This document shows, piece after piece, positions 56,651 through 58,314 of a stretch of 64,000 bases of DNA (position 1 is its first letter; every line of letters starts with the position of its first letter). The notes under the pieces are model-generated. The model saw only the letters and a list, made by a program, of their open reading frames with translations, searched no databases and was not told the DNA's origin. This stretch comes from Spirochaetota bacterium. Lineage in GTDB: Bacteria; Spirochaetota; Spirochaetia; Treponematales; Rectinemataceae. The translations under genes were made by a program, and so were the position numbers. The DNA is taken from contig JAKLFE010000007.1 of NCBI GenBank assembly GCA_022711355.1, positions 17,776-81,775 on the forward strand. Direction: 5' to 3'.

Positions 56651-57727
56651 TCAAAGGAGCCTCGAGCCCGCCGCGAGGGCGAGGCCGGCGATCAGCGAGA
56701 CGAGCATCGGCCAGAAGCCTTGCTCGACCTCCGCCAAGGCTCCGGGCTGGGAAGTGAAGGTAGAGGAGCCCGTGAAATTCAGGGCGAGAAAGCCCGTTGC
56801 CGGAACGGCGAGGAAGAGGCCGGCCAGGGTCGCCAGGGGAGGCAGCCGGAAGGCGAGGCCGCAGGCCAAGGCCCATAGGGCCCCGAGGGCCGCGCCTTTC
56901 AGGGCGAAGGCGCGGCTCGGGAGCCAGGGCAGGAGGGCCGGGAAGAGCATCGTCCCGAGTGGTACCGTCCCGAGGAGGAGTATGGCCGCGGGCAGGGAGC
57001 GCTCGAGCCAGGCCTCGTCGAAGGGGAGGCCGTAGAGGCCGCCCAGGACGATCGCGGCGAGGAGGAGGGGCCAGGAGTGGACGATCTCGATAGGAGCCAC
57101 CGCCATACGCTCCCGAAGCGCGAAGCTGACGGTCCGCATGGCCTCGTCCTTGCGCTTCCCGGCGGCGAGCCAGGCCTTGATGTCCGCGGCGCGCACCGGG
57201 CCCCACGCGACGCGGAAACCCGAGCGCCGGGCGACCTCGGGGGCGGAGACCCCGGGGGCCCCGAGCTGGGGGAGAATGAGCTCCCGATGGCTCACGATCT
57301 TCCCGAGCCGGAGCGAGGAAAGCCGCGCGACGAGCTCCTCGGTGCCGAAGCTTCCCTTGCCCGCCGCGCACCAGACGTTGATGCCCTTCGTATCCAGCAC
57401 GAGGATCCAGGCGTCCAGGCCAGCGACGCTCGAGCGGAGGGCGTCGAAGCTCATCTTGTAGTTGGCGGAGACGAAGACCGGCGACTCGGCGCCGGGGGCT
57501 CCCGCGGCGTAGAGCCCGGGCAGGAGGCTGTAGCGCATGCGCCCCAGGCCCCACCTGGCCTTGAGGCCGCCCCAGCGGTCCGCGAAGGCGAGCCGCGTCT
57601 TGACCCGGGGAATGGTCCGCCCCGCGTACACGAAGAAGCGCTCCACCCAGGGCCGCTTGAGCTCCGCGAGCATGAGGTAGCCTGCCTGGCCCCGCATCGC
57701 GGGATCGGCGTTCAGGATGAGGCTCAT
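56651..57727 (-). CDS. hgcA: Mercury-methylation corrinoid protein HgcA (CFeSP-like corrinoid domain plus C-terminal 5-TM domain)
   Basis: Diagnostic cap-helix motif GINVWCAAGKG (the N(V/I)WCA(A/G)GK consensus), flanked by …RWGLGRMRY…SPVFVSANYK…LILPQLGAPGV…WGPVRAADI… and a hydrophobic multi-TM C-terminus. The ATG at 57727 overlaps the upstream MarR stop (ATGA). Confidence 0.85.
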   Translation of the reverse strand: MSLILNADPAMRGQAGYLMLAELKRPWVERFFVYAGRTIPRVKTRLAFADRWGGLKARWGLGRMRYSLLPGLYAAGAPGAESPVFVSANYKMSFDALRSSVAGLDAWILVLDTKGINVWCAAGKGSFGTEELVARLSSLRLGKIVSHRELILPQLGAPGVSAPEVARRSGFRVAWGPVRAADIKAWLAAGKRKDEAMRTVSFALRERMAVAPIEIVHSWPLLLAAIVLGGLYGLPFDEAWLERSLPAAILLLGTVPLGTMLFPALLPWLPSRAFALKGAALGALWALACGLAFRLPPLATLAGLFLAVPATGFLALNFTGSSTFTSQPGALAEVEQGFWPMLVSLIAGLALAAGSRLL

Positions 57728-58224
57728 GCATCCTCCTCGCCGCTCGCCGCCCCGCGCGCGCAGCAGCCTCCGGGCCTCGGCGCCCTCCTCCATTCGCCCA
57801 GGGCCTGGACGAAACGCGGCAGGACCCTGACGAGGGCCGCGGCGTCGCGGGCCGGGAGGGAGGCGAGGAGCCCCGCATAGGACGCGTCGCAGAGCCCGTT
57901 GATCAGGGCGGCCTTGGCGCGGCCCTCGTCGCTCAGGCTGACGAGCTGCCGCCGCCGATTGCCCGGATCCTCGCGCCTCTGGAGGAGCCCGGCCTTCACG
58001 AGCTTGTCCACCGTCCGCGAGAGCGTGGAGGCGTCGAGCTCGAGGCCCGCGGCGAGGTCGCCGACGCTCGGCTCGCCGCCCTCCTCCACCGCGAGGAGGA
58101 GGTGGCACTGGGCCGGGGTCACGCCGCAGCACTCGGTCTCGTCGGCCAGGGAAAGCTCCACCTGGCGTTCGAGGGCTCGGAGGGAATGGCGGAAGGCCCG
58201 TATATCGGCGGGGGATTGATCCAT
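57724..58224 (-). CDS. MarR-family transcriptional regulator with conserved Cys pairs, translationally coupled to hgcA
   Basis: MarR wHTH (…GDLAAGLELDASTLSRTVDKLVKAGLLQRREDPGNRRRQLVSLSDEGR…). Cys-Cys at …ETECCG… and a C-terminal …GGCCARG…. Start is chosen at the second Met (58224), preceded by GGGGG, because the first ATG (58242) lies inside the -10 element. Confidence 0.7.
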   Translation of the reverse strand: MDQSPADIRAFRHSLRALERQVELSLADETECCGVTPAQCHLLLAVEEGGEPSVGDLAAGLELDASTLSRTVDKLVKAGLLQRREDPGNRRRQLVSLSDEGRAKAALINGLCDASYAGLLASLPARDAAALVRVLPRFVQALGEWRRAPRPGGCCARGAASGEEDA

Positions 58225-58231
58225 GCCCCCT

Positions 58232-58259
58232 ATTGTATGCATAATACATTTATTGTCAA
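58232..58259 (-). promoter_or_regulatory. Near-consensus sigma-70 promoter for marR-hgcAB (TTGACA-16-TACAAT), with embedded TGTAT…ATACA inverted repeat and TATTGT direct repeats (probable MarR operator)
   Basis: Minus strand reads TTGACA-ataaatgtattatgca-TACAAT-AGGGGGC-ATG. The palindromic arms TGTAT/ATACA sit between the -35 and -10 elements. Confidence 0.45.
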
Positions 58260-58314
58260 GTGCACATTATAGTCCTGGCCGCGCCGGGGCCCTCCTCCGC
58301 GGGAAGGGGAAGCC

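Follow-up and report, generated by a model that had tools for sequence, protein, structure and literature searches.

A putative MarR_ars-type metalloid sensor encoded directly upstream of hgcAB in Spirochaetota

How the genes hgcA and hgcB are controlled, and what HgcAB is natively for, are long-standing questions in mercury biogeochemistry. The only tested hgcAB regulator is ArsR-like, and close homologues of it have been found only in Desulfovibrio and Pseudodesulfovibrio genomes. A stretch of 64,000 nucleotides (nt) from a Spirochaetota bacterium of the Rectinemataceae (NCBI GenBank assembly GCA_022711355.1, contig JAKLFE010000007.1, positions 17,776 to 81,775 of the forward strand), hereafter the window, raises the same questions for another lineage. 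On its minus strand, a gene for a MarR-family regulator lies directly upstream of hgcAB. An earlier note, made from the DNA letters, proposed that this regulator controls its own gene and hgcAB from an operator embedded in the promoter. What would such a regulator sense, and would hgcAB be its target? Analysis of the locus and its relatives indicates that it is probably, though with considerable reserve, a metalloid-sensing autorepressor of the MarR_ars type that carries hgcAB as its cargo. The elements of the locus are as follows.

57724..58224, minus strand: putative MarR_ars-type regulator gene (marR), 166 amino acids (aa), start codon ATG at 58224 and stop codon TGA at 57726-57724; from Pfam, the AlphaFold2 (AF2) model and cysteine conservation
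57724..57727, minus strand: ATGA junction of marR and hgcA, read directly and kept in homologous loci
56651..57727, minus strand: hgcA, corrinoid protein of mercury methylation, 358 aa, with the cap-helix motif NVWCAAGK; from NF040863 and Pfam CdhD
56324..56635, minus strand: hgcB, 2[4Fe-4S] ferredoxin with a C-terminal CC, starting 15 nt past the hgcA stop; from NF040864
58254..58259, minus strand: -35 hexamer TTGACA of the marR promoter; from the promoter scan
58232..58237, minus strand: -10 hexamer TACAAT of the marR promoter; from the promoter scan and reading
58237..58249, no strand assigned: predicted operator palindrome ATGTA-TTA-TGCAT; family consensus WTGYA-N3-TRCAW

Direct reading of the sequence and its translations gives the minus-strand order marR, hgcA, hgcB. 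The hgcA product scores 391.8 bits on the NCBIfam model NF040863 (HgcA_corrinoid, cutoff 275) and also matches Pfam CdhD, and the hgcB product, which ends in GGSCC, scores 117.6 bits on NF040864 (HgcB_ferredoxin, cutoff 99). These equivalog scores, the NVWCAAGK motif and the C-terminal Cys pair of the ferredoxin identify the two products as HgcA and HgcB. At the junction, GAT GCA TGA overlaps ATG AGC CTC at 57727..57724, exactly the overlap of the MarR stop with the hgcA start that the earlier note had described. The promoter scan found no promoter-like site between marR and hgcA, and a terminator scan found no intrinsic terminators between the genes of the marR-hgcAB region, which would be expected to form one transcript. 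No Rfam family was found in 55800-59200 at E <= 0.1, and the idea of a structured RNA or riboswitch was dropped.

The arrangement is widely kept. Database searches returned 211 relatives of the MarR protein at E <= 1e-5, mostly at 55-78% identity, many of them labelled as Spirochaetota, Treponemataceae or Rectinemataceae metagenome-assembled genomes (MAGs). A set of 137 loci, cited below by their L numbers, comprised 49 loci drawn from one genome per GTDB species, 80 from metagenomes with the motif CCGV[TS][VPM]AQC, and a few contig look-ups and plasmid matches. Neighbours were identified by tblastn of the window proteins against these loci, and the downstream neighbour was readable in 122. 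The same-strand gene directly 3' of marR is hgcA in 98 of the 122, which bears out the synteny comparison that had been proposed; it is arsM in 13, an ArsN1-like acetyltransferase gene in 1 and another gene in 10. Among the 98 hgcA-linked loci, hgcB follows hgcA wherever the contig continues. They are mainly from Spirochaetota, with further members in Desulfobacterota-like, Bacillota, Nitrospirota-like and other MAGs; the labels include delta proteobacterium and Candidatus Nitricultor. Of the 98, 69 have a 4-nt NTGA overlap whose start codon is in frame with hgcA, 3 more have a 1-nt TGATG overlap, and the HgcA N-terminus MS(L/I)LL is conserved from the overlapping ATG. Because the overlap is conserved, the translational coupling of MarR to hgcA that had been suggested for the window appears to be a family trait and not an accident of this sequence. 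Judged from these loci, marR-hgcAB is the standard arrangement in hgcAB-carrying Spirochaetota and is also found in several other phyla, in about a hundred genomes. Protein searches with the MarR proteins of L045 and L042 matched MAG or metagenome proteins only. In three Chloroflexota/Anaerolineales MAGs (L036, L038 and L039), the gene of a CC-motif MarR (CCCGVTVAQCH) lies directly before that of a MalT-like regulator, about 900 aa long, which takes the place of hgcAB or arsM.

The earlier note had recognized a Cys-containing MarR protein, which was confirmed. A longer, mechanically listed open reading frame of 172 aa starts at the ATG at 58242. That start lies inside the promoter spacer, and 27 of 27 aligned homologues start at the position of 58224 or later, namely at that position or two residues downstream; therefore, 58224 was taken as the start, giving 166 aa. 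The promoter TTGACA-16-TACAAT stands as first described, with an 11/12 match. The scan covered 3.2 kb and gave 3 promoter-like sites, this one among them, whereas shuffled sequences would give 0.1. The 48-nt core of the promoter has a GC content of 33%, against 70.5% for the window, and most homologous loci have a TTGAC at the corresponding position. From the end of the -10 hexamer to the marR ATG there are 7 nt, so transcription would be expected to start on or next to the start codon. Judged from this spacing alone, the marR-hgcAB mRNA is probably leaderless. A -10-to-ATG distance of 5-8 nt also occurs in L001, L011-L013, L015 and L058-L062. Other lineages have a leader of 30-40 nt with a GGAG Shine-Dalgarno sequence.

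The predicted operator begins 4 nt past the -35 hexamer, occupies positions 5-16 of the spacer and ends on the first base of the -10 hexamer. A by-eye alignment of hgcA-linked upstream regions places the palindrome right after the -35 hexamer, as ATGTAnnnTACAT or, in more distant loci, as TTGTAnnnTACAA. Counted as [AT]TG[TC]A-N3-T[AG]CA[AT], the strict motif is present in 52/91 hgcA-linked upstream regions (72/91 when one core mismatch is allowed) and in 10/12 arsM-linked ones. The remaining locus sequence, 827,644 nt, holds 9 matches, or about 0.0015 per 135 nt, which makes the enrichment upstream of marR more than 100-fold. Within the 64-kb window, only 58237-58249 fits the pattern. In most loci, the first base of the motif stands exactly 10 nt downstream of the T of TTGACA, which keeps motif and -35 hexamer in a fixed register. 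From its position, a repressor bound at this palindrome would be expected to occlude RNA polymerase. The inverted repeat TGTAT/ATACA that had been read in the spacer overlaps the conserved palindrome but is one base out of register, the conserved form being ATGTA-N3-TGCAT. The direct repeats TATTGT/ACAATA were rejected: their letters belong to the ends of the -35 (TTGACAATA) and -10 (TACAATA) elements, and homologous loci do not keep the repeats. With order, overlap, cysteines and a palindrome at fixed distance all conserved, autoregulation from a promoter-embedded operator, and with it a candidate hgcAB switch, gains strong comparative support as a prediction. The window has a single palindrome copy. 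Two to three tandem copies, about 16 nt apart, occur in L004, L006, L007, L014, L016, L017 and L040 and in the arsM-linked L045 and L135-L137; this suggests that several dimers may bind cooperatively in some lineages.

The 166-aa product belongs to the MarR family, with 59.6 bits on MarR_2 (PF12802, cutoff 27) and 51.6 bits on MarR (PF01047, cutoff 24.6). Its monomeric AF2 model (predicted local distance difference test score 89.7) has helices at residues 5-33, 37-49, 54-61, 65-77, 99-121 and 125-147 and a wing at 81-97. The top 50 Foldseek matches in the PDB are all MarR-family proteins; they are generic matches, and the structure searches found no closely related solved structure. The protein also scores 25.8 bits on HTH_5, barely over the cutoff of 22 and far under its scores on the MarR models, and 26.6 bits on NF033788 against a cutoff of 55. 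These scores and the 166-aa, six-helix MarR fold indicate that the regulator is not an ArsR/SmtB protein.

Both cysteine pairs pointed out in the earlier note, in ETECCG and in the C-terminal GGCC, are present in the 166-aa protein, and their conservation was examined in an alignment of 121 homologues. C32 is conserved in 121/121 and C33 in 120/121; C40 in 121/121, H41 in 120/121 and C112 in 119/121. In the tail, C154 is found in 105/121 and C155 in 90/121, a CC pair in 89/121 and any cysteine in 115/121. The AF2 model places C32/C33 at the C-terminal end of helix 1, C40/H41 in helix 2, C112 in helix 5 and C154/C155 in a disordered C-terminal tail. Distant relatives retain the CC pair, C40, H/Y41 and the tail CC and not C112, and this is the same for hgcAB-, arsM- and arsN-linked members. 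C112 was considered as a universal ligand and rejected, being missing outside the spirochaete clade, including in hgcAB-linked members of other phyla.

This cysteine pattern resembles that of MarR_ars, a subfamily described by Yu et al. 2021 (bioRxiv 10.1101/2021.08.12.456183). In Achromobacter sp. As-55 (CP074375.1), AdMarR_ars is a repressor of arsV and of its own gene; in electrophoretic mobility shift assays it bound the promoters of both without added ligand, and As(III) or Sb(III) released it. Three cysteines are conserved in the subfamily (C36, C37 and C157). A green fluorescent protein (GFP) biosensor in E. coli deleted for ars lost its As(III) response with each of the Cys-to-Ser variants. 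Members have been found in many phyla, among them Deinococcus, Clostridium, Paenibacillus and Acidobacteria, with arsV, arsN or arsP downstream. As(III) binding by the CC pairs, one of the possibilities first raised for the window protein, thus has an experimental precedent by analogy.

In the window protein, C32/C33 form a vicinal pair near the end of helix 1 and align with the CC of MarR proteins linked to arsN2 in Deinococcus and to a permease in Priestia. The C-terminal cysteine is aligned in all 7 sequences of a smaller alignment. A plasmid-borne MarR of Deinococcus aetherius is 37% identical to the window MarR (E 8e-21), and its CC, QC and C-terminal GCGC align with C32/C33, C40 and C154/C155. 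Its cluster, arsR-arsC-aquaporin-marR-arsN2 followed by a major facilitator superfamily gene, is the context described for Deinococcus MarR_ars by Yu et al. (bioRxiv 10.1101/2021.08.12.456183). The Priestia plasmid MarR beside a permease has a CC and a tail CC, and a TTGTA-GAT-TACAA site follows TTGACA there. AdMarR_ars was compared by its published description, and on the Cys motif, the gene context and the Deinococcus proxy the window regulator appears to be of the MarR_ars kind.

The arsenic link extends to the cargo of the wider clade. Relatives at 30-42% identity with a CCGVxxAQCH motif lie directly upstream of arsM in MAGs of Acidobacteria, Thermovirgaceae and Negativicutes, and the arsM products score 317-357 bits on NF008823 (cutoff 263). 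The marR-arsM arrangement was found in four further genomes, among 13 arsM-linked loci in all. One relative lies upstream of a gene whose product is an ArsN1-like acetyltransferase; at 143 bits, it falls short of the cutoff of 170. In a 6.9-Mb ENA genome contig (L050, 5001-7722), marR_ars, hgcA, hgcB and arsM form one same-strand cluster. The sister loci of L050, L134-L137, have marR_ars followed by arsM only. Genes for DGC-domain (PF08859), Thioredoxin_3, GCV_H and rhodanese proteins recur beside the marR_ars clusters of L050 and its sister loci.

In the window itself, the surroundings of marR-hgcAB include the following genes.

58315-58896, plus strand: SigZ-type extracytoplasmic function (ECF) sigma factor (sigZ); TIGR02959, 176.6 bits
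58981-59904, plus strand: ArsP_1 family permease (arsP); PF03773, 123.6 bits
58216..58245, plus strand: candidate promoter of the divergent sigZ-arsP unit, TTGATC-18-CATAAT; promoter scan, 9/12 match
59983-60417, minus strand: arsC, in a separate canonical arsenic unit
60490-60981, minus strand: rhodanese gene, in the same separate arsenic unit
61006-62097, minus strand: acr3, in the same separate arsenic unit
62219-62572, plus strand: ArsR, divergent from acr3; HTH_5, 50.9 bits, with an unusual Cys pattern of PRCVGEL and a C-terminal CDC...C
62639-63708, minus strand: DsbD/CcdA-like membrane thiol-disulfide protein and thioredoxin-like protein, beside the ars genes

The cargo in the window is hgcAB, with arsP divergent and with arsC and acr3 within 4 kb, and ars genes serve as cargo in the wider clade. 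Genes for arsenic functions adjoin the operon in the window (arsP, arsC, acr3) and in L003, L014, L016, L020-L023, L054, L064 and L078. With both ArsR and MarR present, the window encodes two different metalloid-type regulators within a 5-kb span.

The sigZ-arsP unit begins 90 nt upstream of marR on the opposite strand, and the C-terminus of the sigma factor is Cys-rich (CCHFELD...CARCD). The -10 of its candidate promoter is the AT-rich centre of the predicted operator, so one bound dimer could shut both promoters. The MarR of L001 is 70% identical and the divergent genes there are the same; TTGATC-18-TATAAT takes the corresponding position in that locus, and L058-L062 have the same face-to-face promoters in an intergenic space of about 55 nt. 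Judged from these sequences, sigZ-arsP is probably co-regulated from the common operator. The divergent pair beside marR also occurs in L001, L002 and L058-L062, and most hgcAB-linked loci are without it. On the other side of the operon, a MATE efflux gene (54881-56239, minus strand) lies 84 nt 3' of hgcB and is preceded by a promoter-like site of its own, TTGAGC-18-TATAGT (56277-56248). This gene was considered as a conserved operon member and rejected, as it adjoins hgcB in no other examined locus.

Taken together, a mechanism can be proposed. In the absence of inducer, an apo-dimer of MarR would sit on the 13-bp palindrome ATGTATTATGCAT, between the -35 and -10 hexamers of a near-consensus sigma-70 promoter, and block RNA polymerase. 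The same bound dimer would probably silence the divergent sigZ-arsP unit through the -10 in the AT-rich centre of the palindrome. A thiophilic trivalent metalloid, by precedent As(III) or Sb(III) and possibly methylarsenite, would enter the cell and be bound by C32/C33 and a cysteine of the flexible tail (C154/C155); C40, H41 and, in the spirochaete clade, C112 may add ligands. The wings would then move and the repressor would leave the DNA. A single, probably leaderless transcript would be made, from which hgcA would be translated through the ATGA coupling, with hgcB following 15 nt on. The inducer is the main uncertainty of this mechanism, and As(III)/Sb(III) is proposed by analogy with AdMarR_ars.

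Several points weigh against this account. The regulatory role of hgcAB-linked MarR proteins is a deduction from sequence. The case for subfamily membership is made by the Cys pattern, the gene context and a Deinococcus protein of matching context that is 37% identical. The spirochaete clade keeps C40, H41, C112 and C155 beyond the As(III) triad, which could mean a different ligand. Arsenic sensing by MarR would be partly redundant because the acr3-arsC unit has its own ArsR. Finally, should the true promoter be at another place, the AGGGGG just 5' of the ATG could represent a misplaced Shine-Dalgarno sequence.

The extra conserved residues bring in the first alternative, in which the repressor architecture is the same but the inducer is Hg(II) or methylmercury, so that the substrate or product of HgcAB would itself turn hgcAB on. 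Mercury would be held with high affinity at a thiolate site made up of the vicinal Cys pairs and the additional C40/H41/C112 residues. In a profile-sequence alignment made with hhalign (probability 95.9), C40, H41 and C112 align with E41, H42 and H112 of AdcR, and E23 aligns with E24; the AdcR sequence used is identical to PDB 3tgn_A. E41, H42, H112 and E24 are Zn ligands of AdcR. From this match, the conserved residues of the window protein would lie in the classical MarR ligand pocket, which suggests a genuine metal site there. The hgcAB-linked spirochaete clade keeps five to six cysteines and a histidine, beyond what the As(III) triad needs. Vicinal CC pairs are also typical of Hg(II)-handling proteins, such as MerA and HgcB at their C-termini, and the HgcB of the window ends in CC. 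However, C40/H41 are equally kept in arsM- and arsN-linked relatives and C112 is missing in hgcAB-linked members of other phyla; because of this, no residue in the sequences compared tracks hgcAB cargo specifically. In the one family member tested, the response is to As(III)/Sb(III), with no mention of Hg in the available part of that preprint (bioRxiv 10.1101/2021.08.12.456183), and Zhang et al. 2023, in the portion of the paper available, tie hgcAB regulation to arsenic and not to Hg (PMC10349881). A mercury inducer is therefore considered unlikely.

A thiol-redox switch of the OhrR/MexR type is less likely again. In such a switch, oxidants or O2 would form disulfides that alter DNA binding, and the oxygen-sensitive HgcAB would be tied to the redox state. 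Many MarR proteins sense oxidation through cysteines (Chem Rev, PMC11672702), the window protein has six cysteines, and DsbD-like and thioredoxin-like proteins are encoded nearby. However, oxidation normally derepresses MarR targets, which would turn hgcAB on under oxidizing conditions and make little sense for a strictly anaerobic enzyme pair. The pattern of a CC pair and a C-terminal Cys is the one that mediates the As(III) response of AdMarR_ars (Yu et al.), and the gene contexts are those of arsenic genes and not of peroxide defence.

The AdcR-position match could also be taken to mean a metal co-repressor of the AdcR/ZitR type, which would need Zn(II), another metal or an Fe-S cluster to bind DNA, with hgcAB turned on when the cofactor is lost. 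In its favour are the AdcR ligand positions occupied by C40, H41 and C112, and a 2024 review that describes the Zn-sensing MarR proteins as the only characterised metalloregulators of the superfamily (PMC11672702). The window protein, however, scores 23.1 bits on the NCBIfam AdcR-family model NF038251 against a cutoff of 175, placing it outside AdcR/ZitR. The ligand-type positions are partly common to the two, but they are occupied by cysteine here. Helix 1 is predicted by AF2 to be continuous to residue 33, whereas AdcR/ZitR have a long unstructured loop, which is regarded as the hallmark of the co-repressor mechanism (PMC11672702). AdMarR_ars, moreover, binds DNA without added ligand (Yu et al.). 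The co-repressor model is accordingly judged improbable, slightly more so than the redox switch.

It is hardly credible that the adjacency is a relic of gene order in which the MarR acts on another target, sigZ-arsP alone for instance, and hgcAB is constitutive from an internal promoter, as hgcAB is reportedly often called constitutive in model methylators; the 4-nt overlap in 69/98 loci and an order kept across several phyla speak against it, as do the scarcity of sigZ-arsP at hgcAB-linked loci and the lack of a promoter-like site between marR and hgcA in the scan.

If the metalloid-sensing autorepressor is taken as the working account, the wider meaning of the locus can be considered. Already known are the As(III)/Sb(III) sensor MarR_ars, an ArsR-like hgcAB repressor in strain ND132 and a COG-level annotation of a MarR upstream of hgcA in two isolates. 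In the open-access and bioRxiv literature searched, no description was found of an hgcAB-linked MarR as a MarR_ars type that is standard in about a hundred genomes, of an operator common to arsM-linked members, of the conserved overlap coupling, of marR-hgcAB-arsM clusters, or of a relevant MarR-arsM link. It can be hypothesized, tentatively and with more doubt than belief, that hgcAB is part of an arsenic/antimony response regulon, is neither a mercury-specific nor a purely accidental activity, and has a native role tied to arsenic chemistry. This hypothesis is raised because two unrelated arsenic-sensor families, ArsR2 in Desulfovibrionaceae and MarR_ars, appear to have been recruited independently before hgcAB, because the operator is the same whether the cargo is arsM or hgcAB, and because marR-hgcA-hgcB-arsM forms a single cluster in at least one genome. 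If it is true, corrinoid-dependent methylation or detoxification of a trivalent metalloid, or methyl supply alongside ArsM, would be possible roles of HgcAB, and exposure to arsenic or antimony would switch on environmental methylmercury production in these lineages.

The MarR_ars-hgcAB locus offers a defined predicted operator, predicted sensor residues and a small promoter fragment, that is, a testable switch, and the control of hgcAB outside Desulfovibrionaceae becomes a question open to simple experiments. If As or Sb does derepress hgcAB operons, co-contamination would be a predictor of methylmercury, environmental hgcA transcript data would have to be reread accordingly, and a second, independent line would tie HgcAB to arsenic biology.

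Among known systems, AdcR/ZitR (PDB 3tgn, 5yhx) has the same MarR scaffold and ligand-type residues at equivalent positions of helix 2 and helix 5. It differs in using His/Glu where the window protein has thiolates, in its long disordered loop between helix 1 and helix 2, which the window protein is without, and in the family model, on which the window protein scores far under the threshold. AdcR also needs metal for DNA binding, and the opposite logic is expected here.

Zhang et al. 2023 (PMC10349881) note in a single sentence, at the level of COG annotation, that a MarR lies upstream of hgcA in two isolates. The likeness is a MarR-family gene beside hgcA, given there without a subfamily, Cys motif, operator or arsenic link. 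The statement of the earlier note that regulators beside hgcAB are usually ArsR-like consequently needs a caveat, and a second one comes from the report of 'ArsR/SmtB family regulators' near hgcAB in five Spirochaete MAGs, for which the search used the HTH_5 model (Gionfriddo et al., bioRxiv 10.1101/2022.10.17.512643). Because the window MarR also passes HTH_5 (25.8 bits, cutoff 22), these matches may be of the present MarR type.

The same authors describe ArsR2 (DND132_1054), an ArsR-like repressor that controls hgcAB in Pseudodesulfovibrio mercurii ND132, where hgcAB is induced by arsenic, and that is co-expressed with hgcAB, with close homologues in hgc+ Desulfovibrio and Pseudodesulfovibrio genomes (bioRxiv 10.1101/2022.10.17.512643). 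ArsR2 and the window regulator are alike in being Cys-rich repressors, predicted as such in the window, whose genes lie directly upstream of hgcAB, in their arsenic link and in a proposed metalloid-dependent derepression. They differ in that ArsR2 is an ArsR/SmtB protein with a four-Cys site, whereas the window protein is an unrelated 166-aa MarR of a type found in Spirochaetota and several phyla. The comparison points to MarR_ars as an independent recruitment of a metalloid sensor to hgcAB.

The closest system is MarR_ars itself. AdMarR_ars and the window regulator have in common the MarR fold, a Cys pair at the end of helix 1 with a C-terminal Cys (C36/C37/C157 against C32/C33/C154-155), autoregulation, which is predicted here, a position directly upstream of the cargo, relatives with arsN, arsP and arsM, and, in part, an arsenic neighbourhood. 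The window system differs in its cargo, which is hgcAB and not arsV, arsN or arsP, and in its extra near-invariant C40 and H41, second tail Cys and, in spirochaetes, C112. It further differs in its predicted translational coupling to the cargo and probably leaderless mRNA, and in an operator that is defined by comparison, the available text of Yu et al. giving no operator sequence. The kind of regulator is thus a known one, and what is new in this locus is the hgcAB cargo and the extra conserved residues.

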